From an uncultured Roseivirgaceae bacterium (GTDB taxonomy: Bacteria; Bacteroidota; Bacteroidia; Cytophagales; Cyclobacteriaceae), in the NCBI GenBank assembly GCA_964444895.1, contig CAYUJK010000001.1:767-64766 (forward strand): a DNA stretch of 64,000 bases, given 5' to 3'. A program made the translations under genes and the position numbers. Of the stretch, positions 31,967 to 57,577 are shown in pieces (within the stretch, counting starts at the first letter, position 1; each line of letters begins with the position of its first letter). The notes beneath the pieces are model-generated. The model had not been told where the DNA came from. It saw nothing but the letters and a program-made list of their open reading frames with translations, and ran no database searches.

Positions 31967-32029
31967 AAGAATATGTTTATGGTGAAAAAACCCTACCGGA
32001 GAGTTCCCCGGTAGGATAATTTAATATGC

Positions 32030-33454
32030 CTAAGAAGAAGCGGTTGCTTTCGTTGACCTTACGGCGAGGTGAAGCATTGCCTGCTGCCACCCCATCTCTG
32101 ATCGGTGCCAGAAGTAGAACTTGTCTACGCCGTCGGTTTTCCAGTCCTTAACAGTGTACTGCATAAACCTGTTCTCCCTGTCGGACGCTTTATACCTGAT
32201 CTGGCAAAGCTCCATAGACTCGGTTTCCCCGGTCATCGGGTCTTTGCTGGTATATTTGTCCATCGGAAGGAAATACATGGTGTCGGGATAAGGTTTCCCC
32301 GGCGCGCCGGTTATTTGCTTGTAGTACAAGAAAGGTTCTTTTTTCATGTAGAACGACCTGCCGAAAAGATACACGCCTTTATATCCGAGGTGAAGCATCT
32401 GTTCTTCTGGTGATGCATGTCCCCATCGGGTATAGTCGTTACCGGCAAAAGCGCCAAATGTCGGCGGTATCCCTTTGTCGAAGAATATTTTCTCGGCTTC
32501 ATAGTACGCGCGGTTTCCGGCAATCACACAATATTCAGCCGGAGCGTTTTGAGCATCCAGCCCTACGTTGATTTTTTGGAGTTCGTCAAAATCAAACACA
32601 GAGTGAATGTTGTTCAGACCATAGTTTTGGATTTTCCAATCCATACCCTCTGTACGCCTTACGGTTCCCCCGTCAGCGTTCGGGTCAACGTTATCCACGA
32701 CGGCATTTGTTCCCTGGCCTAATCCCAAAGCTAAGGCTATGGCCATCTTGTGACGCGTGTATGCCTGATCTACGCCACGGTAGTATGCGAACTTCTTTCC
32801 AGACTTTGTCACTACTACATCGCTCATGTTTGCTGCGGCAGATCCGTTTGAAACGTAAGTAGTCGCCATGATTTGGGTGCGACCGGTGAATTTTACCGGT
32901 TTGTTGTGCATACCGTCAGGCTGACCGGTACCGTCCGCTTTCGCGGTACCTCTCCATGTGATAAACTCACCCACTACGGCAGCGCCTACTATATTTACGG
33001 CGGGATCGGGAGTAAGCACCACTTCATGCTCTCCGTCTGTACCGTCCGCGGTAATGTCAGCATCACTCTTGATCCAGCCCTCTACGCCACCAACTTCCCA
33101 TACGTCCCATTTTTTGAAAGGCATTGTCTTATCGTTTACCGCCTCAATGGTGATGGTGACGGCGTTTCCAGCGCCTGGTGTTCCCGCTATACTCTTTATT
33201 TGAGGTACCGGTATTAAAGGCGTTTCTTCGTGATGGTGAAACTCTGATTGCCCGGTGATGGTGCGTCCTGTTTGAACAAAGAAGTCGAAAAACTCATCTT
33301 CTTTCAGGTGGGGAAATATCGCCTTGCGAACGTCGGGCCTCATAATGAGGTTGTCGGCATTCACTACATACACCCCTTCTTTGAAATATGCTTGCTCCAA
33401 AGGCCCGCTGTTGTCGTATGCCAGTGGAGGGGTATTTATATCAAATTGTGCCAT
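32030..33454 (-). CDS. major capsid protein candidate
   Basis: 474-aa ORF immediately downstream of the scaffold-like gene. The call rests on position and size only. Confidence 0.5.
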   Translation of the reverse strand: MAQFDINTPPLAYDNSGPLEQAYFKEGVYVVNADNLIMRPDVRKAIFPHLKEDEFFDFFVQTGRTITGQSEFHHHEETPLIPVPQIKSIAGTPGAGNAVTITIEAVNDKTMPFKKWDVWEVGGVEGWIKSDADITADGTDGEHEVVLTPDPAVNIVGAAVVGEFITWRGTAKADGTGQPDGMHNKPVKFTGRTQIMATTYVSNGSAAANMSDVVVTKSGKKFAYYRGVDQAYTRHKMAIALALGLGQGTNAVVDNVDPNADGGTVRRTEGMDWKIQNYGLNNIHSVFDFDELQKINVGLDAQNAPAEYCVIAGNRAYYEAEKIFFDKGIPPTFGAFAGNDYTRWGHASPEEQMLHLGYKGVYLFGRSFYMKKEPFLYYKQITGAPGKPYPDTMYFLPMDKYTSKDPMTGETESMELCQIRYKASDRENRFMQYTVKDWKTDGVDKFYFWHRSEMGWQQAMLHLAVRSTKATASS

Positions 33455-33465
33455 TTTAGATCACT

Positions 33466-34638
33466 TTAATTGTTTCTTGCTCTCCCTTCTTTTTGTGCCA
33501 ATAGATGTGCCGCCTCGGCAAGCTCGTCAGAAAACTCATTCATGTTGGCAGGCACCCTTGTCGTGGTGGTTTTTCCGTTTTCAAGTTTGTTGGTGACTAC
33601 TTTTTTGTTTTTCATTTCAATCTTGTGGGTAGCTATCTTTTCTGGTAGGGTGTCCCGGAGTGCAAATAAGGACACGAATTGGGCAAACTTCTGCTGATCC
33701 ACCTTGTCATTGGTGATGCCTATTTCTTTAAGGAAAGACATTGGGTCTTCCAGGGATTTTTGGACAAACTGAAGCTCATCCGGTTTCATGGCGATATTGT
33801 ATGGGTTGTCGCCTATTTTCACCGTCAGGTGTTTGAGTCCCGACATTACCCTCTTGGTTTCAAGTTGGTACGTCTTGACCATAGCGTCAATTTCTTCCTG
33901 GGAAGGCCCTGACTTTTCGGGCTGCAAGGCTTTTTCTTTCCATGTGGCGATGCCTGATTTTGCTTTTGATGCTTCGCTGGCCAGCATCTTTTCCGCGAAT
34001 AGTTTCTCGCGTTGAAAATTACGCCACTCGGCTTCATTATCAAAATCTTCCTCAGTACGCTTGTCATCAAGGATTGAATACTTGGCATCATAGTCTTTTT
34101 CAAATTTCATTTGCATGAACTCCGGGTCTTGTTCAGAGTCTTCAGGATTGCTCAGCATAAAGTGTTGCCGTAGCAATTCTTTTTTGTTCATGTTTTCCGG
34201 GTTCATGGAGGTTACCGAAAAAAACTTCGATGGTGGGATGCCTTGCTTTTCAGCTTCTATGGCAGCTTTTATCTGGTTGCTGATACCGAGAGCCTGGTAA
34301 GGATCTTTCTTGAGGCGTGATGCCTCGCTGAGCACGTCCACCACATCGTTAATTGATTTCAATTCAAGCCCCGTGATCTGACTGAGGTCTTGAAGGTAAT
34401 CTGATTGTGGTGCTGGTGGCTCTTCGCCGCCCTCGACTGAAGGTTCTGGTTCGTCCTGGACTGGCGGTTCATCCCCTTCGATTGGCCCACCCTCTTCACC
34501 TTCTGGCTCTTCTCCTTCCGGCTCTCCCTCTGGTTCTTCTTGCGGGGGATCGCTTGCTGGTTGTGCCTCTGGCGGTTCGGGTTGTTCTCCCGGTTTCAGG
34601 ATGTCTTCAGGTCTCAGGATTTCATCAGGAAGCTGCAT
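33466..34638 (-). CDS. scaffolding-like protein
   Basis: Extremely acidic Pro/Glu-rich N-terminus (PEPPEAQPASDPPQEEPEGEPEGEEPEGEE) followed by helical K/E-rich sequence. First gene of the minus-strand head operon. Confidence 0.5.
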   Translation of the reverse strand: MQLPDEILRPEDILKPGEQPEPPEAQPASDPPQEEPEGEPEGEEPEGEEGGPIEGDEPPVQDEPEPSVEGGEEPPAPQSDYLQDLSQITGLELKSINDVVDVLSEASRLKKDPYQALGISNQIKAAIEAEKQGIPPSKFFSVTSMNPENMNKKELLRQHFMLSNPEDSEQDPEFMQMKFEKDYDAKYSILDDKRTEEDFDNEAEWRNFQREKLFAEKMLASEASKAKSGIATWKEKALQPEKSGPSQEEIDAMVKTYQLETKRVMSGLKHLTVKIGDNPYNIAMKPDELQFVQKSLEDPMSFLKEIGITNDKVDQQKFAQFVSLFALRDTLPEKIATHKIEMKNKKVVTNKLENGKTTTTRVPANMNEFSDELAEAAHLLAQKEGRARNN

Positions 34639-34656
34639 ATTGTAGAAGTTTAGTTT

Positions 34657-34746
34657 TTGTCAAAATGACAATTATTGTCGTTTTAGCAATTATTGTCGAA
34701 ATGACAATGATTGTCAAAATGACAATATTTGTTCAAAAATATATAA
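34657..34746. repeat. tandem array of 18-bp units built on the palindrome TTGTCAAAATGACAA (4 good units plus 1 degenerate)
   Basis: Units start at 34657, 34675, 34693, 34711 and 34729 (degenerate). Sequences: TTGTCAAAATGACAATTA / TTGTCGTTTTAGCAATTA / TTGTCGAAATGACAATGA / TTGTCAAAATGACAATAT / TTGTTCAAAAATATATAA. Confidence 0.9.
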
Positions 34747-34769
34747 ATTGGCGAATAAAAAACATTTTC

Positions 34770-36656
34770 ATGAAGAAAATATTGGTGACCATCGCCAGCT
34801 ACGGCATCTCCCAAAACCTATTCCTTCGAAAATTAGTAAGGGAATTCAAGTCTTTTTCGAAGTATCATGTTGACATTATTGTTCATTCCGATTTAGATGA
34901 TGTGGGGGATAGTTATGTGATGAAAAATGTGTCGGTCAAAAAAGTATTGCTTGACGATTATCAATATTTGCCGTTCTCATGCCGGGAAACGATATTGGAG
35001 AATAAGGATGGTTACGACCTGCTTATATACACCGAAAACGACATTCTGTACACCGAAAGGAATATAGACGCTTACATAAAAGCTTCTGAAGTTTTAGATG
35101 GCACTCGCTTTATCCCTGGCTTTCTAAGGTTTGAGGTTCATAATGGGAAAAAGACGTTTCCCGACTTCCACAAGAATTATAGGTGGGACCCATCGGTTTT
35201 TTATCAGAGCCAACCCTATATGTTTTTTCACTTCACTAACGAACACCACGGCGGAATTTGCTTAACCCGAAAACAACTATCAGACATATCATCGAAATTT
35301 GATTTTATGTCGAGACAGTTTGCCGACAGATATAAAAGGAATACCCCGAAGGTACATGCTTGTACCAACGTTTACACTGAAGCTGGCTTCGTAAAAGTCA
35401 TAGCCATATCTCATTTTAATGATTTTCTCCTACATCATCTCAGTAATCGCTATGATAAACTCGGTGTTGACAATGATTATATGCAGGCCAACCTGATAGA
35501 CTTAATAAAGCCAAAAACCCATGTCAAAAGAATTGATGTGCTGAGGAAATTAATTTCCGCGTTTGGATACAAAAGCTACCTGGAAATAGGCTGTGATAAA
35601 AATCAGGTTTTTGATCAGATAGGATTAAAAGACAAGACCGGGGTTGATCCTGTAAGGGGCGGGAATATTAGGGCTGATTCTGACGCGTTTTTTTTAAATA
35701 ACAATCGCAAGTACGATATAATCTTCATAGATGGGCTCCACGAGCGAGCACAGGTGTTGATGGATATTGAAAATGCACTTAAATGCCTCAATCCTGGCGG
35801 GGTAATAGTTTGCCATGATGTTTGTCCGTACACTGAGGATATGGCCGAAGTCCCCAGGGCCACAAAGATGTGGACTGGAGACTGCTGGAAAGCGTGGGCC
35901 GACCTCCGGTCATCAAGAAAGGATTTGTCGATGCTGGTCGTTGATGCCGATTATGGTATTGGGATTATTACAAAAGGGAACCAGGAGCTTTTGGAGAAAA
36001 AAGAATGGACGTATACTGATTTTATAAACAACAAAAAGCACATTCTTAACCTCATACCTGTCAGTGATTTTTTTAACTCAAAACGTCCTATTGATATAAA
36101 AAAAGATTTTAAAATACAGTACGTGATCCCGTATAGCCTTGAGAAGAAAATAGGCAGGGCGTACAACGAAAGCTGTGCTATTGTGCCGGATGAATATTGG
36201 ATTGGCATTACCGACGGCGATATAGCGTTTCTTAATCCAGATTGGGGACACACGATAGCAAACACAATTGCCGCCAATCCTGAATATACTGTATTCACGG
36301 CCTACGCTTCGAGGATAGGCAACAAACAGCAAAGATATAGGGGTGTGATAAGCGAAAATCCTAACATCATAGATCATTACAACATAGCCATCCAAGAATC
36401 CGCGAAAAACAGTACGCGGGTAATCCCCATGAAGGAATGTATGTCGGGCTTCTTGATGATATTCCCGAAATGGCTGTGGAAGAAAATCCCATTTCCAGAA
36501 AAATCTGACGAGGGTACTATGCTTGGGATAGATAAAGCGTGGTCTAAAAAGGTGTTGGCAGCCGGATACAAGATAGGTATTATAGAAGACCAGTATGTGC
36601 TTCACTACTATCGATTGAAAAACGGAAAAACCGATAAATCACATTTGTTATGTTGA
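34770..36656 (+). CDS. three-domain sugar-tailoring enzyme: GT-A-like N-domain, class I SAM methyltransferase, GT2-like C-domain
   Basis: Real start taken as the ATG at 34770 (MKKILVTIASYG), because the upstream part of the track ORF is antisense to the scaffold gene. Methyltransferase motif I is YLEIGCDKN, with IIFIDGLH and GGVIVCHD. C-domain has WIGITDGDIAF (DxD-like). N-domain has LIYTENDI. Confidence 0.6.
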   Translation: MKKILVTIASYGISQNLFLRKLVREFKSFSKYHVDIIVHSDLDDVGDSYVMKNVSVKKVLLDDYQYLPFSCRETILENKDGYDLLIYTENDILYTERNIDAYIKASEVLDGTRFIPGFLRFEVHNGKKTFPDFHKNYRWDPSVFYQSQPYMFFHFTNEHHGGICLTRKQLSDISSKFDFMSRQFADRYKRNTPKVHACTNVYTEAGFVKVIAISHFNDFLLHHLSNRYDKLGVDNDYMQANLIDLIKPKTHVKRIDVLRKLISAFGYKSYLEIGCDKNQVFDQIGLKDKTGVDPVRGGNIRADSDAFFLNNNRKYDIIFIDGLHERAQVLMDIENALKCLNPGGVIVCHDVCPYTEDMAEVPRATKMWTGDCWKAWADLRSSRKDLSMLVVDADYGIGIITKGNQELLEKKEWTYTDFINNKKHILNLIPVSDFFNSKRPIDIKKDFKIQYVIPYSLEKKIGRAYNESCAIVPDEYWIGITDGDIAFLNPDWGHTIANTIAANPEYTVFTAYASRIGNKQQRYRGVISENPNIIDHYNIAIQESAKNSTRVIPMKECMSGFLMIFPKWLWKKIPFPEKSDEGTMLGIDKAWSKKVLAAGYKIGIIEDQYVLHYYRLKNGKTDKSHLLC

Positions 36657-37252
36657 TCATTACCGGATTAGGCAGGACCGGAACAAGTTTTATCGCAAGG
36701 TGTTTTCACGACTGCGGATTTGACATGGGGGGGCAATGGTTTGATGATAAAAATGCGGGCATGGAATTGTTTAAGGTTGTTAAACTAAATAGGAAAATAG
36801 AGGGGGGTGTGTTATCAGGAAAGGTTTGTCAAGATAAAATAAAGGAAATTTTCGAAAGGCACCCTATCGTTAAAGACCCTCGGTTTGTGTTTGATAAATC
36901 TCATGGTAGAGTAATAAATGAGTGGACAAAGGCCCTTAAACCAAAAAACATACGAGTCATGTTAACCACAAGGAATATTAGCGAGGTCTCTATGTCAAGA
37001 AAATTAATGATCGACTCTAAAGACGTGGGTGCGTATATGGAAGGGGCTTTGTGTGTAATGTTGGCAAGCTTTATTAATAACTTGTCCGCACACAACATTG
37101 TGTTTGAAACGTTAAATTTCCCCGATTTCCTTTATTACGACTTCAATGTGATAAGAAAGAAATTTAAAAGGATAGGGTTTGATTTGCCGATAGGGTTTGA
37201 GGATGTTTGGGAAAGAAACAAAGATTTTTCAAAAATACATCATGGTGGGTGA
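36650..37252 (+). CDS. sulfotransferase-like P-loop protein
   Basis: MLIITGLGRTGTSFIARCF resembles the 5'-phosphosulfate-binding loop. TTRNISEVSMS resembles the 3'-phosphate-binding region. Overlaps the upstream gene by 7 nt. Confidence 0.4.
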   Translation: MLIITGLGRTGTSFIARCFHDCGFDMGGQWFDDKNAGMELFKVVKLNRKIEGGVLSGKVCQDKIKEIFERHPIVKDPRFVFDKSHGRVINEWTKALKPKNIRVMLTTRNISEVSMSRKLMIDSKDVGAYMEGALCVMLASFINNLSAHNIVFETLNFPDFLYYDFNVIRKKFKRIGFDLPIGFEDVWERNKDFSKIHHGG

Positions 37253-37949
37253 GAAAATAGATATTGTGTACCCGTTGGGGGAAGGCTCAACCTGGAACGA
37301 TAACGAACTCAGGTATTCTATTCGCTCCCTGGTAGAGTTTGTCAACATAAACCGGATCATCGTCGTCGGGAAAAAGCCGTTGTGGGCTTCTGACGAAATC
37401 ACACATATCGATATGGACGACCCTTTTCAGCGAAAAAAAAACCTGAACATCATCCTGAAAACATTGCGTGGGGCTGAAGAGGTGCATACACCGCGGTTTC
37501 TGAGGCTCTCCGATGACCACGTGATTAACAGAACCCCTGACTTCTCCCCTTATCACCGGGGCCGTCTGCCCGACACAGCAACTGTAAGCCAGGGTGATTT
37601 TATCCGTTCTTGCCACGAGACGTACAAATTCTTAAAAGGCAAGGGTCTCCCCACCTATGATTACGAGGGGCATTACCCCGTTATCGTGGACACCAAAAAG
37701 TTTATTTCGGCATTTACCGGGATGGATATGGTGTCGGTTATAGGGTATGCTATCAACTCCACCTATTTCAACCAAACAGGCGTATTTCCGCCTGAACCAG
37801 CTTACCACGTTCTCAGGCTCCGGGACAGGGGGTTTGATGGGGAGGCGTGGAAGTACACATTCCTAAATTATAGCGAATTTTCATTATCTGACCAATTAAA
37901 GGCATATTTGCAAAAAAGGTTCCCTAACAAGACGATATATGAAAGATAG
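37242..37949 (+). CDS. Stealth-family-like sugar-1-phosphate (hexose-phosphoryl) transferase
   Basis: In-frame ATG at 37242. IDIVYPLG is CR1-like, NDNELRYSIRSL...IIVVGKKPLW is CR2-like, FLRLSDDHV is an NDD-like block, and EGHYPVIVD is CR3-like. Confidence 0.55.
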   Translation: MVGEKIDIVYPLGEGSTWNDNELRYSIRSLVEFVNINRIIVVGKKPLWASDEITHIDMDDPFQRKKNLNIILKTLRGAEEVHTPRFLRLSDDHVINRTPDFSPYHRGRLPDTATVSQGDFIRSCHETYKFLKGKGLPTYDYEGHYPVIVDTKKFISAFTGMDMVSVIGYAINSTYFNQTGVFPPEPAYHVLRLRDRGFDGEAWKYTFLNYSEFSLSDQLKAYLQKRFPNKTIYER

Positions 37950-38541
37950 CGCTACCTCATCGATGCGTATCGACATTCTCTCGCACTACAAGGCGAAGGA
38001 CGTGTTCGTGTCACTGCCAACACTCCGGCAGTTTCACAGTTTTGTGGAGTATAATAAATCACCTACTAAAGGGCTTCCCCCTAATATGGTGATTGCCTAC
38101 GTTGTGTTGTTGTACAGCGAGGATAGTGTCTTAAATAAACAACCCATGCCGGCCCTGGAGCAAAGACAAATTATGGCGGCAGAGCTTGCAGGGTTCAAAC
38201 CTAAGAAAGGCAAACATGACAATGTCGTGGTCAACGGGTTGTTTAACCTGGAAAACGAAGGGATTTTTTCTATGGCTTTTGAGTACCTCATGTTTCAGAA
38301 GCAAGCGGAATGGCAGTTATTGATTGCCACTGAGACATTACGGGTGTCATACCTTCGGGATATGATGAAACCTACCCACAACACCAAAGAGCTGGAAGCG
38401 AAATCTAAACTGAAGTCTCTGGTGAAAACCTACAACGACGACATCGCCGAGCAGATAAGAGAGATATTCAGTGACCACAAGAAGCTGGAAGACTTTGGGA
38501 AAGAGAAGCTTTGGGGCGATACCATTGAAACTATAATTTGA
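37939..38541 (+). CDS. possible small terminase subunit (position only)
   Basis: 200-aa ORF coupled to both neighbours and directly upstream of the large terminase. No motif recognised. Confidence 0.3.
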   Translation: MKDSATSSMRIDILSHYKAKDVFVSLPTLRQFHSFVEYNKSPTKGLPPNMVIAYVVLLYSEDSVLNKQPMPALEQRQIMAAELAGFKPKKGKHDNVVVNGLFNLENEGIFSMAFEYLMFQKQAEWQLLIATETLRVSYLRDMMKPTHNTKELEAKSKLKSLVKTYNDDIAEQIREIFSDHKKLEDFGKEKLWGDTIETII

Positions 38542-38545
38542 TACC

Positions 38546-40786
38546 ATGCATAAAGACCAAGGCGGAGATTGTGTTGAGTTACAGGGGATAAAGTGCTATT
38601 TACCCAAAAGACCTCCTTTGCATGAAATACAAGGGTTTCACCTGCCTAAACGCGAACAGAAATGGTACCGCACACCCCTTCCTGTACTGAGGGGTTCTGA
38701 TATAGAAGTTTTTTCGGGGGCAAAATATAAGCCCAACCAAATAGTTTCCTGGGAGCAAGCCAGAAGGGAAGAGGAAATAAAAAATACCGGATATGACCCG
38801 TGGTCGGTCAACAATGTGGGCCGGATGACAAAAGTAATGGGAGTTGAACCCGACATTTCATACCGGATGCCCGTGTTATCAAAATTCAGAATACAGGAAT
38901 TGGACAGGGTCATCAATGGCCACTGGTTCATGAATAATGGAGAGCCAACCTACCTCACAGGGATAGGATACATGTATTTTAACTGGTGGAAACTTGACAT
39001 AGGGTATCCTAATTACAGAAAGTACATACGTGAGATTTTGTATGTAGTCGAGGTAGTCCGGGGAGACCCTGTTTTGCTTGGCGTCTTGCTTGCCTCTATG
39101 CGTGGGGCCGGCAAGACCTACATGGCTTGTTGTATTCTCTACACCATAATGATATTCTCAAGGAATGCGCTGGGGGGTATGCAGTCAAAGACTGACGTGG
39201 ATGGGAACAGTATGTATTCAAAGAAGCTGGTGCAGCCGGTACTTGCGCTTCCTGACTTTTTAGTCCCAATACACAACTGGCTTACTACTGTGCCTGATAA
39301 AGAGATGAGCTTCTCTTATCGCACAAAAGCACACCCCAATTTTGAGTATGACCGGATTATGAGGGAGTTGGAACTCAAATCTATCATAGACCACAGAAAC
39401 GCCTCCGACAGGGCTTATGATGGGGAAACAACTACCGTGTTATTACAGGATGAGGTCGGGAAAATAACGAAAAAAGTAGGAAATGTGAAGCGTAGGGTCA
39501 ATGTTAACAGACATTGTGTGCAGCGCGGCGGGGACAAAAGGGGTATCTTGTTTGGGTTCACCACGGTAGGGAATATGGAGAGGGAAGGCGGCATGGAGTT
39601 TAAAGAGGTTTTTAATGATGCTGACCAAAACAACCGGAATGAGTTAGGATACACCAAAAACGGCTTTGTCAATTATTTTGTTTCAGCGCTGGAGGCCACC
39701 GTGTTTGATGAATGGGGCAACCCGGTTATCGACATACCAAAAGACAAGCGGACAATTGATTTTATCACAAAAGAACAAGGCCCCCAATATGCTAAAGGTT
39801 CCCGATTTTTCCATGACACACAAAAGGCCACCCTGTTCGCTGACGGCAAGGCCAAAGGGGATTTGAGCGACTACTTTGATTATTGCCAGAACAATCCTTA
39901 TACCCTGAAAGACGCTTTCAGTTTTAGCGGCAAGGAATGCATATTCAACCAAACCATCCTCCAGGAAGCCCAGCACGTCATCAATTCGATGGAGCCAAAA
40001 AGGGTACGCCTGAGCGGGTATTTTGAATGGGTAGTGAAAGACAAAGAGGTGAAATTCGTGGAAGACCCCATGAACGCCAGGTGCCACGTTACCATGTTCC
40101 CTGACGGGAAAGTATGGATACCCAACCGGGTAAATTCGTGGACAGACCACAATGGGAAAACCTTTTATTATCCCGTGAATGAACGCTTTGCCAGCTCCGG
40201 GTTTGACCCCTTCTCACATAAAGATGTGGTGGACAAAAATAAAGCTTCAAAAGCGGCATTCACGCTGAGGACGCGGTTCAACTACCATTTTCCTGAAGAC
40301 TTGTGTGAAACGCCTATTGTCCACTATAAGTTCAGGAGGGATGACCCTGAGGACAGTTTTGAGGACATCATTATGATTTGTTTCTTTTATTCCATCCCGG
40401 TGCTGATAGAAAGTGTACAGGGCGGGCAGGCGGCCATATCGTATTTTGACAAGCGTGGATATGGGAAATTTGTCATGAGAAGGCCAAAGAGTACGTTCAC
40501 CCGTAAAGATGATGCCCAGGACAAACCCGGAACGCCTATGAATGCAGGGGTTATTGAGCAGATGTCCAACCTTGCGGCAAGCGACATAAATAAGAATGGC
40601 CGTAAATTCCGGCAAATAGAAATTGTGGAGGACGCTTTGGCGTTTAACCCTAATAGTACACAAAAATTTGACTCTTTCATGTCTTATGGTCTATCTTTAA
40701 TAGCCGCAGAGAAAGAACCCGCACAGGAAACTAAATCTTTTGAACTGGGCGGACTTATTCCGACATATAATACTCAACAAAAATGA
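38546..40786 (+). CDS. terL: terminase large subunit
   Basis: Walker A is LASMRGAGKT, Walker B is TTVLLQDEVGK. The C-terminal RNaseH-like nuclease region carries acidic residues (ASSGFDPFSHKD). Confidence 0.85.
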   Translation: MHKDQGGDCVELQGIKCYLPKRPPLHEIQGFHLPKREQKWYRTPLPVLRGSDIEVFSGAKYKPNQIVSWEQARREEEIKNTGYDPWSVNNVGRMTKVMGVEPDISYRMPVLSKFRIQELDRVINGHWFMNNGEPTYLTGIGYMYFNWWKLDIGYPNYRKYIREILYVVEVVRGDPVLLGVLLASMRGAGKTYMACCILYTIMIFSRNALGGMQSKTDVDGNSMYSKKLVQPVLALPDFLVPIHNWLTTVPDKEMSFSYRTKAHPNFEYDRIMRELELKSIIDHRNASDRAYDGETTTVLLQDEVGKITKKVGNVKRRVNVNRHCVQRGGDKRGILFGFTTVGNMEREGGMEFKEVFNDADQNNRNELGYTKNGFVNYFVSALEATVFDEWGNPVIDIPKDKRTIDFITKEQGPQYAKGSRFFHDTQKATLFADGKAKGDLSDYFDYCQNNPYTLKDAFSFSGKECIFNQTILQEAQHVINSMEPKRVRLSGYFEWVVKDKEVKFVEDPMNARCHVTMFPDGKVWIPNRVNSWTDHNGKTFYYPVNERFASSGFDPFSHKDVVDKNKASKAAFTLRTRFNYHFPEDLCETPIVHYKFRRDDPEDSFEDIIMICFFYSIPVLIESVQGGQAAISYFDKRGYGKFVMRRPKSTFTRKDDAQDKPGTPMNAGVIEQMSNLAASDINKNGRKFRQIEIVEDALAFNPNSTQKFDSFMSYGLSLIAAEKEPAQETKSFELGGLIPTYNTQQK

Positions 40787-43167
40787 GAAGCTATAAAAAT
40801 CAATTAACGCCCCGTGCTGTCAGCGCCTTTCCGAATCCACTGGCGCACCCGAAAGTGAAGGCGGACAAAAAAAAATGGGGGCTTCCGCTCGCATGGGCCA
40901 TCTACACGAATTACCAGATGACGGGCTACAAAACCCTCTTTGGGGACAGTGTGGTATACGACAACTATCTTAGCTATGCCTTTGGCGAGCAGGACAAAAG
41001 CAAGTATGCGCCGGGAACGGACGGGGATCCAAAAGATGTGTTCCATCAATTCATTCCCCGAATAAAGGACGACATTAAAAACTACGCATCAAAACGCATA
41101 CGTATTGTATGCGAAAAATTGGAAAACAACCGGTTCGACCCGATAGCCAATGTAACGGATTCTTCTGCTATCGACCGGCGCAAGGACTACGAGTCCAGGT
41201 TGCGGCTATCTATGGAGCAGCAGTCGTTCCTCGCTGAGCTAACCGAGATGACCGGGGTAAACCAGTTCCCGGAGGGTGTTGATCCCAAGAACCTACCCTT
41301 TGACGAAGACGACCTTCGTATTGATATGGAACTCAATTACAAAGACAAGATTTCCATGAAACTGGAAAAGGGCATGTCGTACCATCTGAGCCATAACGAC
41401 TACGAAACCGCAAAGGCAGAGATAGACTTTGATTTAGCTGTAATTGGGGGGGCCTGCCTTCATGTCGGGATGGATCAAAACTATCGCCCCACAATAAAAC
41501 GCATCCGGCCTGACCTGGCCATTGTGCCTGAAGCGTCAGACCCTTTTTACCGAAACATGCCGTACGGCGGATACATAGAGTACATGAGCGTCCACGACTT
41601 CAGGATGCACCACAACGGAGAACTCAGTAAAGAAGAGGAAGAACATGTGATAAGGACATATTCGGAAAGCCCTTCTGCCCCATACGTGAAGAACATGGGG
41701 TCAAATGTTGATTTACGGGACGCCAATACCATTCCGGTGATGTATTTTGAGTACAAAAGCACCAATGAGGAAGTCCACCTTGAATATAAAGACTCCAACG
41801 GTAATGACCGGTTTATCGAGAAGGACTACAATTACTACAAAACATTCCCGCAGAGGAATAAATTTAAGGAAAAATACGGGGCCAGCAGGAAACTCCACCG
41901 CAAGCCATATCCCGCCATTTATAAGGGGTATTGGGTAGTGGGCACAGATTGTATCTATCAGTATGGCCCTAAAGAATTTACGGTGTATGACAGGCAGGGC
42001 GGCAAGATCGGAGACCCGATGATCGGATTTATCGTTTGCACACCCGGCGTCAGGGACGGTAGGTCTGCCGGCCTGATAAAACAAATGATCCCTGTTCTTG
42101 ATGATTTACAGTTCATTGAACTAAAAATACAGGAGACCCTTGCCAACCCTTTCCCTGGTGGGGCTGTGATAGATTTGTTTGCACTCAGAAAGGCAAACTT
42201 TACGCTTGGGGGAAAGGCTTTAAAGCCTGAAGACCTGATTAAAATGGCCTTCAAAAACAAACTTGTACTCATTGACACACAAGATGGAAATTACGCCGCG
42301 GGGAGCAACTACACCGCCGTTCAGGAGATGAACCTGGGTGTCCCGCTTGCGGACCAACTTCAGCTTCTTCAGCATAGGCTTATTGAGCTTGATGAAATAA
42401 TCGGGTACAACCAATCCACCAATTCTTCACCAACGCTTTCCGACCGAACCCCTGTCCGTGTGGCGAACATGCAGCAACAGAATACCGACCTCGCTTTGGG
42501 ATTCTTGTACAGAGCTGACTACTTCATGTTTAAGCAGACGTGCAAGCTATTGGCGGGACTACACCTGCTGGCACTGAAGTACGATCCAGAGCACTACTCA
42601 CATATCTTTGGTGAGGATACCGTGGAGTTCCTGAATAGCGATGAGTTCGACCCGGACGAAATTGAGTATGGTATAGAGATAGAGCCGCGGCCAACGGATG
42701 ATGAGTGGAACATTTTTTATGCCCGGCTGGAAAAACTTGAATCTGAGGGGCGGTTGTCGGCTTCCGACATAATCCAAATACAAAGGTTCAACAATCTCAA
42801 ACAGGCGCAGACCTATATGCGTGTGCTGGAGAAACGCCGAGAAAGGGAAGCCCATCAAAGGCAGATGGAGTTAGTGGACGCCCAAACAGCTGGTAACATT
42901 GAGGCTGTTAAAACGCGTGGCCAGCTAATCCATGAAACGGAGTCCGCCAAACAAGAAACCGAACGAGTCAAAGGCGAACAGGAACGGCAAAACTTGCTGT
43001 TGAAGCATAAGCTTATGATGGAACAGATTGAGCGCCGGGAATCCCTGGGCGGCTTCACAAAAGACTTCCTGCAAGACAAGAAAGGTCAGGTTGATGTTCT
43101 GTTAAAAGCGATGGAGCTTGCTGGTGCAAAAGCCCTGGCAGACTCAAAACCCAAGAAAGACGATTAG
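40783..43167 (+). CDS. portal protein candidate
   Basis: 794-aa ORF ATGA-coupled to terL with a charged helical C-terminus. The call rests on synteny and size. Confidence 0.55.
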   Translation: MRSYKNQLTPRAVSAFPNPLAHPKVKADKKKWGLPLAWAIYTNYQMTGYKTLFGDSVVYDNYLSYAFGEQDKSKYAPGTDGDPKDVFHQFIPRIKDDIKNYASKRIRIVCEKLENNRFDPIANVTDSSAIDRRKDYESRLRLSMEQQSFLAELTEMTGVNQFPEGVDPKNLPFDEDDLRIDMELNYKDKISMKLEKGMSYHLSHNDYETAKAEIDFDLAVIGGACLHVGMDQNYRPTIKRIRPDLAIVPEASDPFYRNMPYGGYIEYMSVHDFRMHHNGELSKEEEEHVIRTYSESPSAPYVKNMGSNVDLRDANTIPVMYFEYKSTNEEVHLEYKDSNGNDRFIEKDYNYYKTFPQRNKFKEKYGASRKLHRKPYPAIYKGYWVVGTDCIYQYGPKEFTVYDRQGGKIGDPMIGFIVCTPGVRDGRSAGLIKQMIPVLDDLQFIELKIQETLANPFPGGAVIDLFALRKANFTLGGKALKPEDLIKMAFKNKLVLIDTQDGNYAAGSNYTAVQEMNLGVPLADQLQLLQHRLIELDEIIGYNQSTNSSPTLSDRTPVRVANMQQQNTDLALGFLYRADYFMFKQTCKLLAGLHLLALKYDPEHYSHIFGEDTVEFLNSDEFDPDEIEYGIEIEPRPTDDEWNIFYARLEKLESEGRLSASDIIQIQRFNNLKQAQTYMRVLEKRREREAHQRQMELVDAQTAGNIEAVKTRGQLIHETESAKQETERVKGEQERQNLLLKHKLMMEQIERRESLGGFTKDFLQDKKGQVDVLLKAMELAGAKALADSKPKKDD

Positions 43168-46100
43168 ACCATTATATTGCCAGAGACTTTTACATACCGG
43201 GTATTGAGGTGGCGTATTCGCACCTCCCCGGTTTCACTATTCTCCAACGTGACTTCTATGGATGGCCCCGCCATTTCCCGCCCAAACAAAAGTTTTGGTT
43301 TGCCTGCCGGCACAATGGCGTCAGGGGTGTTTTGGTCCCTGAGCACGTCAGCCACATAGTGATCTCCCCTTTTGATAAACTTGCTTGCCGGGATGTAACT
43401 CTCCTGTCCCGCCGGGGTGGTGATGCTGGTAATTTCCCATTTTGAATTAGACTCAATCCCCAATGCCTTGAAAATTTTATCGTTCGAATACTCGTTGTTT
43501 ACCAACACTTTAATTCTTGCCGGATATGTTGTCCCGTAAAAGCTGCCGCGCGTCTCGTTGGAGTGGTGGAGCCACGGTACGCCGTTTTTAAACGTCACCA
43601 TGCTGTTTCCTACATACCCGTATCTTTCAGGAATGAAGTTATAAAAGCCTACCCATATATTGTACTTCTCACAGAACCCTACGGTGATAGCGGGTTCCGT
43701 GTCAAGTGCCGGGAATGTTATGTAGTAAATGTGGAGGTACGGGTCGTATCCGCCTATTATCTTTACGTCTTGTCCTAAATATTTGGCACACTTGTCCACG
43801 AACCATTTTTTGGTGCCGTATGTGGTGGCCAGAGGGGTAACCCCGTCTGTGCTCCTGCGCCACGGCTCTGCCCTTAGTCTGTCGAGGCCATATACTTTGC
43901 CGTCATGCTCTACAATTGATCCGGGGTCTTGACTTCCTAATCCACCGGCCAGCTTATTATCCTGGCGCATGAACTCATCGGTGATCACCCATGATAGTTC
44001 GTCGCCTTGCCGCATATATGCCTCGCCGGGATACATAGTGGATATGTTATGTTCATGTACGCTAACCACTACATCATTTGCCGCCACCCATTTCACCACT
44101 GATCCCCGGTCATACGGCAACACATATATATTGGTCGCCTCATAATTATGAAGTCCATTTATTTGCGTGTTGGCCATATAAACATTTGAGGCTATCATCA
44201 GGTTGGGCATAGACAACTCTCTTTCGTTATCGAGAATGATGATAGTTCTGCCGTGATTATTGGTTGGCCTTGAATAATCAAGCGCCTGAGAAGGTGGTTT
44301 TGAGAAAAATTTATACCCTTTAAATACCCACGGTGGTGGCTTTTCAAAAAATTGATACATGGCCCCCTTCAGAAAGTTGAATTTTATTGGCCCTAAGTTT
44401 ATGGTTAAGTTTTCTTGTATCCACTCGTCAAGCCCGTTGTAATATTCCTTCTTTTTTTCGACCTCAGCCTCTACCGCAGTCGATATGTTAGCTGACGACG
44501 TCGTGCTTGTTGGGGCTTCTGCGTTTAAATCGGACGTTGTATATTTTAGATTTGTTATGTATGGCGCACTCGAAGTCGGAAACCCAATGCTTTTCCCTTC
44601 AATATTGTCAAACACATACCACGACCCGAAAAAATGATAGTTTGTGTCGCCGCCTATGTATTTGGTGCCCGTAAATTCGGAAATCGGGTATATTCTGCCT
44701 TGTTCATAAAACTCTTCGTCGATAATTTGTTTGGGTCGGTAAATCTCTACGCTAAGCTTGACCTCTTGAAACACGTTGAAAATCTGCCAATTGTCAATAC
44801 CAAAAGTGTCAACAACGAGCATGTTTCCCCTTACCTCTATAATGGGCGATTCTCTTAACTCTAAAACCGGAAATGGGGTTGTCATTTTTAATCTGACTAT
44901 AAAAGATGAGTCTGGAACAAAAGGTATGTTGAGCGGCATTAGTAGGTGTATGCGAGAGGCAAAAGAAGCAGCAAATGAGGACGGGGCCTCCTCAAGGTAA
45001 ACGGCACCGTTATAAGCAAACGTATTACTCGGCATTCCATCTTCCGGGTTATATTCGGAAACGTAAAACAGAGGCATTACCGGTATCTGCATGTATAAAT
45101 CGAAGATAGACTCTTGTGTGATAGGAATGGAAAAGTAATGTGCGTAAGACGGGGGAGTGCCTGTCAGGCCTATTCTTGCTAAATGGCGCTTTGGCGCCCC
45201 CTGTTCGGGCCGTTCTGGCGGGGTGATAGATATTTTCTTTTTTACGGATGTAATTCTGTGATACTCGTCATAAAAACACAACGCCACGGTATAGCTGCCC
45301 CCGGATTTAAGGTGGTATTGTAAGTTTTCACTCGACCTGACTGAATTGTACGTCTCCTCATCATCTAAATTGTTGATCAACCCATCCAAATAAAGGTTGT
45401 AATTAAAATCGTCGTCGTTGTGTCCGTTAATGAATGAATTAATGATGTTCCGGTTTTTAATAAACACTTGTGCAGAAGACCTTTTTGGAATAGGCTCGAA
45501 GAGTTTTATTTCGTCATCACTCAATGATATAAGTGCAGTTTGAGCGTCAAAATTACGGGTCATGGTAGACGATGTTCCAATGTTTTTTTCCGTAAAAAAA
45601 ATCTTCCATGCCCCCAGTTTGTTTTCGTCTACCAAAAAATCTACTTCACTTACGTAGTCCCGAAGGTTTGGCGGTATCTGAACAGTAACATTTATTGATC
45701 TGGCATTGAATGCCAAGTTGGGGAATTGGTATGCTGGTTGTGTTTTTGAGTGAGGTGACGGTACGCTATGGGTGCCATCTTTGTACTTAAAGCGATAAGC
45801 AAATTGGTAATTGTTAAAACAAACCTTGTTTGTAGCTAATTGAGCGTCTCTTGATGTTGTAAATACCGATGTTGGTGGTATGGCGGGGCCTTTTTTAGCA
45901 AGGTCTATATCTATTTCTTTGTCTACATAATCTCCTTCTAACGCCCGTTTTATATTCAAACACCGCTGTGCGTTTGATGGTTCCACCCAATACAGTAAAT
46001 CATCCACTATGAACGCGTGCTCGATGGGGTATGCGGGTGAAAAATCAAGCCCTTCCCACTCAAATATTTTGGTGGCTCCGGTCGTGCCGGATTGCCACAT

Positions 46101-46373
46101 ATAGATAGCGTCTACCCCGCCCGGCTTGTGTATGAAGAAAACAAGCCTGTTCCTTCCATTGTCCGAACACGCCCCTATACAAATATTTCCTTCCGTCTCG
46201 TTAAAATCTATGGTAAGCCGGGTATTTCCTTTTACCTTTTGGCGGGAAGGGTTTGAGGTTACCTCGTTGCCTGGGACCATGTTCCACATCTCCCTGTAAA
46301 ATCCTTTGTTGGTATCCAGGAATTCGTCGGTATCGTCGGTATTGAGAGCAAAGAAAAACTGTTTCGAGTTCAT
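43164..46373 (-). CDS. large (1069 aa) virion-associated protein, function unknown
   Basis: Uninterrupted ATG ORF convergent with the portal gene (stop codons overlap). Beta-rich composition. Confidence 0.6.
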   Translation of the reverse strand: MNSKQFFFALNTDDTDEFLDTNKGFYREMWNMVPGNEVTSNPSRQKVKGNTRLTIDFNETEGNICIGACSDNGRNRLVFFIHKPGGVDAIYMWQSGTTGATKIFEWEGLDFSPAYPIEHAFIVDDLLYWVEPSNAQRCLNIKRALEGDYVDKEIDIDLAKKGPAIPPTSVFTTSRDAQLATNKVCFNNYQFAYRFKYKDGTHSVPSPHSKTQPAYQFPNLAFNARSINVTVQIPPNLRDYVSEVDFLVDENKLGAWKIFFTEKNIGTSSTMTRNFDAQTALISLSDDEIKLFEPIPKRSSAQVFIKNRNIINSFINGHNDDDFNYNLYLDGLINNLDDEETYNSVRSSENLQYHLKSGGSYTVALCFYDEYHRITSVKKKISITPPERPEQGAPKRHLARIGLTGTPPSYAHYFSIPITQESIFDLYMQIPVMPLFYVSEYNPEDGMPSNTFAYNGAVYLEEAPSSFAASFASRIHLLMPLNIPFVPDSSFIVRLKMTTPFPVLELRESPIIEVRGNMLVVDTFGIDNWQIFNVFQEVKLSVEIYRPKQIIDEEFYEQGRIYPISEFTGTKYIGGDTNYHFFGSWYVFDNIEGKSIGFPTSSAPYITNLKYTTSDLNAEAPTSTTSSANISTAVEAEVEKKKEYYNGLDEWIQENLTINLGPIKFNFLKGAMYQFFEKPPPWVFKGYKFFSKPPSQALDYSRPTNNHGRTIIILDNERELSMPNLMIASNVYMANTQINGLHNYEATNIYVLPYDRGSVVKWVAANDVVVSVHEHNISTMYPGEAYMRQGDELSWVITDEFMRQDNKLAGGLGSQDPGSIVEHDGKVYGLDRLRAEPWRRSTDGVTPLATTYGTKKWFVDKCAKYLGQDVKIIGGYDPYLHIYYITFPALDTEPAITVGFCEKYNIWVGFYNFIPERYGYVGNSMVTFKNGVPWLHHSNETRGSFYGTTYPARIKVLVNNEYSNDKIFKALGIESNSKWEITSITTPAGQESYIPASKFIKRGDHYVADVLRDQNTPDAIVPAGKPKLLFGREMAGPSIEVTLENSETGEVRIRHLNTRYVKVSGNIMV

Positions 46374-46387
46374 TCGTGTAGATGTTT

Positions 46388-46420
46388 TTTGTCAAAATGA
46401 CAAAAGTTTCCATAAATTTG
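46388..46420 (+). promoter_or_regulatory. Bacteroidota-type promoter (TTTG - 21 nt - TAAATTTG)
   Basis: TTTG at 46388-46391 lies inside the palindrome. Perfect TAnnTTTG box at 46413-46420. The ATG is at 46438. Confidence 0.6.
46389..46403. promoter_or_regulatory. operator-like palindrome TTGTCAAAATGACAA, identical to units 1 and 4 of the 34.66-kb array
   Basis: Exact 15-mer in the 64-nt divergent gap between 43164..46373(-) and 46438..47139(+). Confidence 0.8.
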
Positions 46421-46437: not shown

Positions 46438-47139
46438 ATGAAAAAGATTCTCTCCAAAATAATTTCCAGCAGGCTCCATGAAGCCCGTGAATTTTACGCC
46501 AACATCAACCCTCATGAGTATCTGTGGGCGTGGCCTATGTTGGTTTTGGGTGCAATACAGCTCATATCTGGACTTTCATCCGCTAAAAACAACCAGCGTC
46601 CCGTCATGCCTGAAACGACAGGTGCCACAGGAGAAGCTACCGCTATGAGCCGTCTTCTTGCCCAACAAACTACTGATCCCATACTTTCCGGCCAGGAAAC
46701 GGCTATTGAGCAAGGCCGGGCGCAGGGCATACAAAATTTAAAAAGGACGCTGAAAGACCCCGGACAAATACTCTCCGGTGTTTCACAGATTACCGCTGGG
46801 GGCAACCGGGCCAGACAGGAGGCGCTCATGGACTTTGGGGCCCGTAAGATGAACCTTCAGCAAAGCTACATAGGGCAACTCGCTAATGCCGCCAGGGAAC
46901 AGAGGGAGGCCTTTTACTACAATGAGGTGGAGAAGCATAGGGAAAAGGCTGCGGCCAGCTCCGCTCTTATACAAGGGGGTATTTCCAATATTGCGGGAGG
47001 TATATCAGAAGGGCAGTTAGCAAAACAGAATAAAGAATTGGAGCGCTATGTGTATGGAGGCAACCAGTCGTTTAACTTGTCGGCCCTGGAGCAGCAGGTA
47101 TATGGTACCAAAATAAATACACCAACAATAGGTCGTTAA
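46438..47139 (+). CDS. single-TM protein with Gln/Ala-rich helical ectodomain, function unknown
   Basis: ATG ORF, 233 aa. TM segment is LWAWPMLVLGAIQLISGL. It is a lone plus-strand gene between two giant minus-strand genes. Confidence 0.6.
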   Translation: MKKILSKIISSRLHEAREFYANINPHEYLWAWPMLVLGAIQLISGLSSAKNNQRPVMPETTGATGEATAMSRLLAQQTTDPILSGQETAIEQGRAQGIQNLKRTLKDPGQILSGVSQITAGGNRARQEALMDFGARKMNLQQSYIGQLANAAREQREAFYYNEVEKHREKAAASSALIQGGISNIAGGISEGQLAKQNKELERYVYGGNQSFNLSALEQQVYGTKINTPTIGR

Positions 47140-56192: not shown

Positions 56193-56410
56193 TCGATGTT
56201 CAATTCAAGATTAAGGACAAATAATGCCGGGAGGCATTAGGTGTGTATGAATAAAGACGTGCAAATGTAGTAAAGGTTTCAGGAATTATTGCAAATTATT
56301 TTTTCTTGTTTCGCTACCCCTTGTGTTTTCGCCTGCGATCAATAACTGTCGCTATCAGTAGTTCTCCTTCGTCGAACAACAGATAGCTTTGAGTTGTAGG
56401 CAATTGCAGC

Positions 56411-56941: not shown

Positions 56942-57289
56942 CTAATTATGTGTGCGGGTGTATTCATCCTCCACACATCTTAATAAATGTTCCAAAGAAT
57001 GTCCCATATCATATCCTGATCCGGCCAAACTCTTTTTCTGCATTAAATATGTTTTTGTGTAACAGCTCTTTAATTCCTCCAGAGTGGAATTATCCCAACA
57101 ATAGTCGCAAGTAGCAAACGTACCCTTGTTGTTGTTGTGTTTTACCGCTTTAGATTCACACCAATTCCACGGTAGTCCACATTTTTCACAACTACTGTAG
57201 TTTGGGTTAAAAAATCGCAAAACAGGAGGCACTATAATGCGTAATATAGGCTTACTCCTCATTATGCTTATAAATTCTTTTCGCGTCAT
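56942..57289 (-). CDS. Cys-rich zinc-finger-like protein
   Basis: ATG at 57289 overlaps the TGA of the HTH gene (ATGA). Contains CEKCGLPWNWC ... CDYCW. Confidence 0.55.
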   Translation of the reverse strand: MTRKEFISIMRSKPILRIIVPPVLRFFNPNYSSCEKCGLPWNWCESKAVKHNNNKGTFATCDYCWDNSTLEELKSCYTKTYLMQKKSLAGSGYDMGHSLEHLLRCVEDEYTRTHN

Positions 57290-57492
57290 AGCTTCAATAA
57301 TTTGTCTGCGGTTTCCTTTACATCGGTGATCAGCCACGTTTTGATCCGTTCGGCAGTCGTCTTTCCAATCTTGCCCCCATTGATGAACCGGGAGATGGTG
57401 AACTCACTAAGCCCAAGCTCTTCAGCAAGTTCCCTTTGTGACATCATCCGGGACTTGAGAAGTTCCCTGATTTGGATTATTTCTTTTTCCAT
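57286..57492 (-). CDS. XRE/Cro-CI family HTH transcriptional regulator
   Basis: MSQRELAEELGLSEFTISRFINGG is a canonical HTH_XRE core. The start is taken at ATG 57492 (MEKEI) because a TAGATTTG box lies just upstream, at 57498-57505. Confidence 0.75.
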   Translation of the reverse strand: MEKEIIQIRELLKSRMMSQRELAEELGLSEFTISRFINGGKIGKTTAERIKTWLITDVKETADKLLKL

Positions 57493-57497
57493 AGATA

Positions 57498-57555
57498 CAA
57501 ATCTAAATATTTCCATATCAAAACGAGCAAACTTTTTGCTTTTTTGTTAGATTTG
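57498..57555. promoter_or_regulatory. divergent promoter/operator region
   Basis: TAGATTTG on the minus strand at 57498-57505 and on the plus strand at 57548-57555. Inverted repeat AGCAAA-CTT-TTTGCT at 57526-57540 lies between them. Confidence 0.55.
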
Positions 57556-57577
57556 GAAACATAAAATTTACCTATCT

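Follow-up and report, generated by a model that had tools for sequence, protein, structure and literature searches.

The origin of bacteriophage lambda contains four dyad-symmetric iterons of ~19 bp, which are bound by the O protein and lie beside an AT-rich region, and in phage phi29 the sites bound by protein p4 lie between the divergent early promoters A2c/A2b and the late promoter A3. For phages of Bacteroidota, both the timing of late-gene expression and the sites at which replication starts are, to our knowledge, almost wholly obscure. Here, we describe an array of four tandem 18-bp palindromic units at positions 34657-34728 of a 64,000-nucleotide stretch of contig CAYUJK010000001.1 (hereafter, the window; 44.7% GC), which belongs to an uncultivated tailed phage and carries the array in a divergent junction between virion-gene operons. 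Our tentative reading, to which we give somewhat less than an even chance, is that the array is an operator lattice for a dimeric DNA-binding protein and serves as a transcriptional gate on the late genes.

The units start at 34657, 34675, 34693 and 34711, with an exact 18-bp step, just as an earlier note on this DNA had reported, and are built on the core palindrome TTGTCA-AAA-TGACAA (TTGTCAAAATGACAA), which has 6-bp arms and an A/T centre:

Unit 1, 34657..34674, strandless: perfect TTGTCAAAATGACAA followed by TTA, 18 nt off the ATG of the scaffold-position gene (34638, minus strand).
Unit 2, 34675..34692, strandless: degenerate TTGTCGTTTTAGCAA followed by TTA, with an inverted centre.
Unit 3, 34693..34710, strandless: TTGTCGAAATGACAA followed by TGA, with one mismatch to TTGTCAAAATGACAA.
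Unit 4, 34711..34728, strandless: perfect palindrome followed by TAT.

Mismatch counts bear out the division of these units into two perfect copies (1 and 4) and two variants (2 and 3) made in the earlier note: unit 2 differs from TTGTCAAAATGACAA at 6/15 positions, including three in the arms, whose outer bases it retains. A degenerate fifth unit that the note had placed at 34729 does not hold up as a site, having 7 arm mismatches; a minus-strand -7 promoter box is found there instead. Because the units are laid out as 6+3+6+3, the TTGTCA and TGACAA hexamers alternate strictly every 9 bp, and both registers are palindromic. Independently, Tandem Repeats Finder (TRF) calls the array at 34657-34738 with a period of 18, 4.5 copies and a score of 85, as both the top-scoring repeat and the sole multi-copy tandem array of the window.

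The array is non-random and lies far above chance. The degenerate pattern TTGTCRNNNTRRCAA, for which the earlier note had proposed a search, has 8 matches compared to 0.13 expected (0/100 shuffles reach 8), and all 8 lie either within the array or at 46389, while the 15-mer at ≤3 mismatches has 12 matches vs 4.5 expected (0/100 shuffles reach 12). Genome-wide, the half-site hexamers stay at background (27 and 21 observed vs 20.5 and 16.9 expected) and cluster solely at two junctions, at 34.7 and 46.4 kb, rather than occurring at a similar density throughout coding regions. We find no copy of the palindrome in any other intergenic gap of the window, including the early-region gaps for which this had already been remarked, nor in ~10 kb of the same phage beyond the window (contigs L019 and L020), such that across ~74 of the phage's 76.7 kb the palindrome is confined to two late divergent gaps, which are also the only AT-rich divergent gaps within the virion-gene block.

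In Bacteroidota, the primary sigma factor uses TTTG/TAnnTTTG and not TTGACA/TATAAT, and in Flavobacterium johnsoniae the -7 element runs from T-12 to G-5, with a weak -33 element and a mean leader length of 33 nt (PMC6847099). The promoters and transcription starts given here are predictions from this consensus, with starts placed by the rule of a G at -5 (PMC6847099). The resulting features at the array are as follows:

Array gap, 34639-34769, divergent: 131 nt, 24% GC.
AT-rich tail of the gap, 34729..34769, strandless: 41 bp, 19.5% GC, with predicted back-to-back core promoter elements.
-7 box, 34734..34741, minus: exact TATTTTTG, pointing to the scaffold-position and capsid genes, with only aTG at -33.
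-7-like box, 34744..34751, plus: TAAATTGG, imperfect, 18 nt upstream of the ATG of the glycosyl/methyltransferase gene (34770).

The 131-nt length of the gap agrees with the earlier note, which had overlooked the predicted promoter distal to the array. From the exact -7 box, the minus-strand transcript is predicted to start near 34729, which would place units 4 to 1 at approximately +2 to +73 of a 91-nt leader, and the array is thus probably transcribed leader or roadblock territory. The plus-strand box TAAATTGG mismatches the nearly invariant T at -6. We note that an exact TAHHTTTG would occur by chance in a gap of this size and composition with a probability of ~10% per strand, by rough estimate. 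No palindrome accompanies the promoter predicted on the minus strand at 56262-56269 (TACATTTG), which precedes the gene block at 47-56 kb, such that the motif marks only a subset of the transcription units.

The second locus has a single exact copy of the palindrome. The earlier note had pointed to an identical 15-mer at 46389-46403, and this identity in fact extends to 18 nt, with 34654-34671 the same as 46386-46403 (TTTTTGTCAAAATGACAA). Two features overlap here, in the gap between the muzzle gene and a gene for a 233-aa protein:

Single exact palindrome, 46389..46403, strandless: 15 nt upstream of the muzzle ATG (46373, minus).
Consensus promoter, 46388..46420, plus: TTTG-N21-TAAATTTG, predicted to drive gene 46438-47139.

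The promoter consists of TTTG (46388-46391), 21 nt, TAAATTTG (46413-46420), and a further 17 nt to the ATG. Only four sequences of the window match TTG-N19-21-TAnnTTTG strictly, this one included, and the palindrome overlies the -33 element and spacer of the promoter. By analogy, this would be a classic position for a repressor.

To place the array in an evolutionary context, we turned to contigs from Logan, ENA and JGI, recovered through capsid homologs; neither by capsid protein, which has no detectable match there, nor by DNA does the phage have close relatives among GenBank phages, IMG/VR, or the GTDB genomes. Two of these contigs, L001 and L005, represent the window phage in another sample, with identical sites. 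A distinct phage, L002, has a capsid 63% identical to that of the window phage and the same divergent junction, and in its gap four units on an 18-bp lattice score 8, 10, 9 and 11 of 12, which 0/2000 shuffles match. Two of these units retain one half-site only, still in register. In the more distant L007/L012 and L129, whose capsids share 44-45% identity with that of the window phage and 85% with one another, the array is shorter: L007/L012 has two copies of TCCCAAATTGGGACAA exactly 18 bp apart directly before the scaffold-position gene (as an array unit, two copies of TCCCAAATTGGGA at 18 bp), and L129 has the same cores and the same spacing, with only spacers and central bases changed. All three relatives use the half-site TCCCAA/TTGGGA, compared to TTGTCA/TGACAA in the window. 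By these comparisons, there is an 18-bp lattice of putative dyad sites at the same position in four distinct phages, with two different half-sites.

The distribution of these half-sites does not match the capsid phylogeny, with L002 and L007 sharing TCCCAA/TTGGGA at a capsid identity of 42%. Arrays upstream of the scaffold-position gene are absent from L003, L006, L011/L015, L013, L016 and L130, as well as from the more distant L017. In L003, L006, L007/L012 and L129, the gene order is colinear (TerL-portal-gap-scaffold-capsid), which we call ancestral. Compared with L003, L006 and L007, the window phage and L002 carry the glycosyltransferase-TerL-portal block (34770-43167) in inverted orientation; this inversion created the divergent junction.

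A comparison of L007 with L129 shows how the units themselves change. The 68 nt through the first palindrome are identical, and the substitutions are found in the spacer after each core (CAA->ATT in both units) and in two central bases of unit 2. Within L007:6637-6672 and L129:56-91, both units share the CAA->ATT change while the flanks are otherwise identical, which indicates that array units evolve in concert, by conversion or slippage.

The position of the predicted promoter is shared among the array-bearing phages. An array-distal -7 box is found in the window (TATTTTTG), L002 (TAATTTTG) and L007 (TACATTCG), in each case with (T)TG exactly 21 nt upstream; the L007 layout is TTG-N21-TACATTCG, and in L002 the corresponding TTG-N21-TAATTTTG overlaps the distal unit. 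The distance from box to ATG is 72-95 nt in phages with arrays compared to 29-41 nt in the relatives that lack them, whose boxes are of the TACATT type. The arrays account for the extra length and thus have the look of insertions that separate the late promoter from the start codon, which in the window would put the insert within the first ~75 bp of the scaffold-capsid transcription unit. In the array-less L003 (8560-8602), L006 (6570-6610) and L011 (2620-2672), a T-run, a CTACATT box and a AGCAAGCAAA leader precede the scaffold-position gene, and these are probably the ancestral late promoter and leader.

From the observed sites, their restriction to two late junctions, the 18-bp lattice of the relatives, and the matches to the promoter consensus, we infer where transcription would start, that a protein would bind, what would bind, and in which sense it would regulate. 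Each of the four tandem dyad sites, spaced 18 bp centre to centre, would suit one dimer of a sequence-specific protein, and the dimers would be bound side by side, probably cooperatively. The lattice would stand immediately downstream of the predicted late promoter (-7 box 34741->34734, +1 near 34729) of the scaffold-capsid(-tail) unit, and the weak divergent promoter that serves the glycosyltransferase-terminase-portal unit would have the lattice upstream of it. The bound protein would therefore prevent RNA polymerase from clearing the late promoter and from elongating into the capsid genes, and would also cover the DNA that lies upstream of the divergent promoter. At 46389, this protein would cover the promoter of gene 46438 at its -33 element and spacer. 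The role of the lattice would be to gate the timing or level of virion gene expression, and repression that is relieved late is the direction we favor.

Several observations support this operator lattice. The conserved arms and flippable centre of unit 2 fit a dimer that reads two half-sites, and not a directional promoter element. The register is strict even where a half-site has decayed, as in L002, and the architecture is conserved across phages in which the specificity has changed. The array shows dyads within the range of about 14-20 bp, with conserved arms, overlaps or abuts (predicted) promoters, and is found with a restricted gene set, as operator arrays do. In addition, crAss-like phages have promoters for the host RNA polymerase (RNAP) before a gene between portal and capsid (bioRxiv 10.1101/2020.03.07.982082). 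The suggestion of the earlier note that the array would be bound cooperatively by a dimeric regulator is thus strengthened by the same-position 18-bp arrays of three other phages and by the 46389 copy lying on a promoter, and weakened by the fact that no binding protein was found.

The transcription units that would be gated in this way contain the following genes:

Scaffold-position gene, 33466..34638, minus: 390 aa, in the portal-to-capsid position, first gene of the leftward late unit.
Major capsid protein, 32030..33454, minus: family profile matches the major capsid protein of PDB 9in6 (E 2e-10).
Intrinsic terminator, 31990..32017, minus: strong, right after the capsid gene, with a 12-pair stem, 7 G-C pairs and a T-run.
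Methyltransferase/glycosyltransferase, 34770..36656, plus: 628 aa, first gene of the rightward unit.
TerL, 38546-40786, plus: PHROG E 3e-64.
Portal, 40783-43167, plus: PHROG E 1e-51; closes the rightward unit with TerL.
Muzzle-like protein, 43164..46373, minus: crAss_MUZ_C domain, E 1e-11.
233-aa gene, 46438..47139, plus: all-helical, with an N-terminal hydrophobic helix.

The leftward unit runs from the scaffold-position gene through the capsid gene and its terminator, and then through nearly gapless tail genes to ~12.6 kb. The terminator (32017->31990) bounds a short scaffold+capsid unit, and the tail genes past it probably depend on read-through; there is no space for a new promoter between the terminator and the next gene. 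The scaffold-position protein, which is 50% identical to its L002 homolog and 26-31% identical to the others, has no Pfam, PHROG or PDB match, and "scaffold" is a label by position only. Among deposited phages, those nearest in TerL (23-29% identity) are podophages of 60-77 kb that infect Flavobacteriia, and from these TerL relatives we infer that the host belongs to Bacteroidota.

Outside these units, the replication module at 1-12.6 kb encodes YqaJ, an intein-containing DnaB, an exonuclease and RusA. The DnaB-type replicative helicase (5412-7868, plus) is split by a LAGLIDADG homing-endonuclease/intein-like insert, with DnaB_C divided and LAGLIDADG_3 at residues 437-484. The block opens with a gene (577-1176, plus) whose product strongly matches Tad3, an inhibitor of type I Thoeris (Pfam E 1e-27), and is a candidate anti-defence protein. 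An initiator/loader-like gene, 4434-5147, encodes 237 aa in the window and in L021 and is called as 186 aa in L020 (L020:11753-12313), a contig of the same phage from another sample with extra upstream sequence, which suggests strain-level variation in the replication module. Just left of the window start, L020 also carries a tyrosine recombinase (L020:2468-3487, Phage_integrase, 339 aa) and RecT (L020:4055-5239), which hint at a temperate lifestyle or at the use of site-specific recombination. At the other end of the window lie tRNA-Tyr(GTA) (58880-58951, minus) and tRNA-Met(CAT) (59202-59275, minus), and the mechanical open reading frame (ORF) calls over both are spurious. The 2197-aa protein at 47141-53734 (minus) has the size and position of a crAss-like virion RNAP. 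We found this assignment unsupported, as the protein lacks the DFDxD motif and has no PDB sequence or polymerase match; its 2265-aa homolog in L002 (28% identical) likewise lacks DFDxD.

A number of points weigh against the operator lattice, beginning with the binder itself. Scans against Pfam and PHROG of most window proteins found no cognate DNA-binding protein. The only recognizable helix-turn-helix (HTH) protein in the window (57286-57516, minus, 76 aa, Cro/C1 or XRE type) adjoins a different 15-bp palindrome in its own divergent gap (57286-57577 region), namely AGCAAACTTTTTGCT at 57526-57540, which stands 7 nt upstream of a -7 box (TAGATTTG, 57548-57555); we found no link to the array motif, and the HTH protein and AGCAAACTTTTTGCT may form a separate early switch. 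The 233-aa protein of gene 46438 was considered as an autoregulated binder and rejected, as its fold is that of an all-helical coiled-coil and not of a DNA binder. Of its 76 remote relatives, 63 were scanned, none of them with a Pfam domain, and the AlphaFold2 (AF2) model of the protein (pLDDT 84), with the hydrophobic N-terminal helix, has no PDB fold match at E < 0.4. In the DNA available for the array-bearing phages, no protein is exclusive to them, and the small genes beside the arrays in L007 and beside the homologous site of L003 have no DNA-binding domains. The site also occupies different positions at the two loci (downstream of +1 vs -35 to -21), and the L002 equivalent of the 46389 junction, where the gap is only 36 bp, has no copy of L002's own motif. 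The -7 boxes of L007 and of the array-less relatives are imperfect, and transcription starts are predicted only. Furthermore, L002 shares its half-site with the distant L007 while the closer window phage differs, a distribution that fits a host factor or a module swap as well as it fits co-evolution, and the exact periodicity could in part reflect recent slippage or concerted evolution. We also considered a host regulon and rejected it: the exact 18-mer has 107 single, taxonomically scattered matches in GTDB, with no genome enriched, which looks like chance.

An unlikely but credible alternative is that the array is a lambda-like origin, in which the 18-bp dyad units would be iterons for a phage initiator, the 41-bp stretch at 19.5% GC the unwinding element, and the 46389 copy an auxiliary or regulatory site. 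The anatomy is of the lambda type, with four dyad-symmetric units, A-tract centres and an AT-rich flank, and at least three direct repeats of 17-22 bp beside an AT-rich region are indeed present, as expected for an iteron origin; two units per array in L007 and L129 fall short of this. The one-half-site direct repeats of L002, kept in register, are likewise iteron-like. The relatives lend further weight at the homologous position, where L007 has a 600-bp non-coding gap and L006 a 620-bp one with eight copies of TGTGGATAAC in two clusters (L006:6066-6152 and L006:6508-6549). Each TGTGGATAAC contains the complement of the DnaA-box consensus TTATCCACA, and the L006 clusters are likely to be either a DnaA-dependent origin or a DnaA-regulated late promoter. 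In the window itself, DnaA boxes (TTATCCACA) number 23 at ≤1 mismatch vs 18.7 expected and are unclustered. No other iteron array in the window competes for the role, and none lies in or near the initiator/loader-like gene 4434-5147, whose product, the one such protein in the window scans, has no detectable homologs outside this phage. The array, however, sits among virion genes 30 kb from the replication module, in a 131-bp gap that must also hold two promoters. Its coincidence with a strand switch and the cumulative GC-skew minimum is uninformative, as the skew tracks the coding strand and has other turning points. An origin would moreover not need tight placement 18-28 nt from the scaffold-position ATG or insertion between promoter and ATG, and the 46389 copy, being on a promoter, is not in an origin-like context. 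Among the options listed in the earlier note (activator, repressor, packaging site or iteron), that of an origin has thus gained somewhat from the DnaA clusters of L006, and that of packaging has lost, as in the relatives it is the scaffold gene, and not the terminase, that the array accompanies.

A second alternative, which we consider rather unlikely, is that the units act in RNA, as hairpins of the 5' leader that would stabilize the capsid mRNA, as processing sites, or as binding sites for a translational regulator, with the 46389 copy being the same hairpin 15 nt before the muzzle start codon. With the predicted +1 array-distal in three phages, the leaders would be 69-92 nt long, compared to the 33-nt average of F. 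johnsoniae (PMC6847099), and the minus-strand leader folds to -22.4 kcal/mol (z = -5.3). At both loci, the hairpin precedes the ATG by 15-18 nt on the minus strand and is followed by AAAA(A)C, and the changes from L007 to L129 fall in loop and spacer and not in the 5-bp stems. Independent hairpins, however, need no strict 18-bp register, and units 2 and 3 of L002 cannot form local hairpins, yet keep a half-site in register. Unit 2 of the window is a poor hairpin on the scaffold-sense strand, the variants in units 2 and 3 give wobble pairs on the opposite (plus) strand only, and A-U-rich stems of 6 bp are weak. The palindrome at 46389 is upstream of the predicted start for gene 46438 and would therefore not be transcribed with that gene. 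Neither Rfam nor tRNA explanations fit the array, and in the window there is no Rfam 15 match at gathering score, only generic hairpin matches below threshold.

The operator and origin functions might also be combined, although this is a long shot: an origin inside the capsid-operon leader, bound by an initiator-like protein (host DnaA in the L006 lineage), would couple replication to late transcription, with half-site specificity swapped between related phages as a module of protein plus site. If true, this dual-purpose element would gate late genes in a lineage-specific manner for which phages of Bacteroidota offer no described example, and such a coupling of origin and late promoter would be a new solution to the switch from replication to late transcription.

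It is improbable that the array is a series of reiterated core promoters, in which the 18-bp period would recruit RNAP directly for high capsid expression with no dedicated regulator. A sigma-70-type scan of the minus strand does return TTGACA-17-AATAAT (11/12) and TCGACA-17-AATAAT (10/12), both of which arise from adjacent units and point at the capsid genes, the minus strand of each unit reads TCATTTTG, which differs from TAnnTTTG at one position, and the middle promoters of phi14:2 are -35/-10-like and are used by Escherichia coli RNAP in vitro (bioRxiv 10.1101/2020.03.07.982082). The nearest deposited relatives nevertheless infect Flavobacteriia, and TTGACA/TATAAT is not what the primary sigma factor recognizes in Bacteroidota (PMC6847099), such that the sigma-70-like matches are probably a by-product of the periodicity. 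It is the boxes beside the sites that agree with the Bacteroidota consensus, and the units themselves are not such boxes; in addition, TCCCAA/TTGGGA of L002, L007 and L129 resembles no promoter element, unit 2 is flipped, and the 46389 element is too near the muzzle ATG for a -35.

There is only a slim chance that the array is a pac or cosB-like site, bound by a small terminase and heading the TerL operon. Repeated terminase-binding sites beside the terminase genes are classical in lambda cosB, and the array does head the plus-strand unit that ends in TerL and portal. This arrangement is peculiar to the window and L002, in which alone the TerL block is inverted: the L007 and L129 arrays follow the scaffold gene, and the L007 array is parted from TerL by portal and other genes. 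We identified no small terminase, nothing matches the 200-aa protein encoded upstream of TerL, and a unique pac site would not be expected to recur, as the palindrome does at 46389.

Finally, neutral slippage or an N-terminal 6-residue coding repeat of a 663-aa ORF is hardly credible and, as a coding repeat, very unlikely: the 18-bp period is a multiple of 3, the frame of the downstream gene is open through the array from an ATG at 34665, and the concerted changes in L007 and L129 show that slippage or conversion acts on such arrays, but the palindrome recurs in the 46389 gap in frame with nothing, the relatives' arrays are non-coding (L007 has no adjacent divergent gene), the stretch is poorer in GC than the gene (24% vs 41%), its translation would be a hydrophobic repeat before the canonical start MKKILVTIASYG, and the L002 half-sites in register (0/2000 shuffles) together with the conserved arms of L007 and L129 argue for selection. 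The ORF running through the array had been overlooked in the earlier note, and the public gene call (Logan, L001:1087-3078, equivalent to window 34665-36656) gives a 663-aa methyl/glycosyltransferase that starts inside unit 1. The true start is likely at 34770, giving 628 aa from MKKILVTIASYG, and we caution annotators that gene callers begin the 663-aa ORF inside the array.

Returning to the operator lattice that we favor, the array presents a short, defined element that heads ~30 kb of virion genes and recurs with another half-site in related uncultivated phages. As such, it offers a bait sequence for finding the regulator or initiator, and TTGTCA vs TCCCAA offers a natural specificity-swap pair. 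The cis-element itself is well supported, if ordinary in mechanism, and belongs to a familiar class, that of tandem operator or iteron arrays, in a poorly known phage lineage.

Of the systems that it resembles, the lambda origin and plasmid iteron origins share the four tandem palindromic units of 18-19 bp, the A-tract centres and the AT-rich neighbor, and in plasmid iteron origins an inverted-repeat operator at the rep promoter parallels the single inverted repeat that lies on a promoter elsewhere in this phage. The lambda origin differs from the present array, which stands in a capsid-operon leader, 30 kb from the replication module, with no linked initiator. The OR1-3/OL1-3 operators of lambda and those of 434 and P22 are likewise tandem dyads of 15-17 bp in a short divergent region over core promoter elements, are bound cooperatively by repressor dimers, and differ in specificity among related phages. 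They belong to the immunity region, whereas the present array belongs to late structural operons with no adjacent repressor gene, and has four sites on a strict 18-bp lattice, with hexamers every 9 bp, that stand downstream of the predicted start and not over -10/-35. The p4 sites of phi29 are also several inverted repeats in a divergent junction that switch late structural genes; the host phylum, promoter type, site structure and spacing are all different, and we identified no p4- or p6-like protein here.

Two further comparisons concern promoters. The tripartite motif of the crAss-like phage phi14:2 (upstream of gp092 and of portal homologs; bioRxiv 10.1101/2020.03.07.982082) shares with the array its position before the gene between portal and capsid, a host within Bacteroidota, and promoter boxes of the host-RNAP type. 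That motif, which we compared by description only, acts as a promoter, and its description does not present it as an array of tandem palindromes. The hairpin promoters of the N4 virion RNAP have a stem of 5-7 bp and a 3-nt loop, and in single-stranded DNA, units 1 and 4 and the 46389 copy could fold into a 6-bp stem capped by a 3-nt loop, the copies standing 15-18 nt before minus-strand start codons. In N4, such promoters drive early genes, whereas here virion genes are concerned; units 2 and 3 and most L002 units form no such hairpin, and the 2197-aa protein has neither DFDxD nor a polymerase match.

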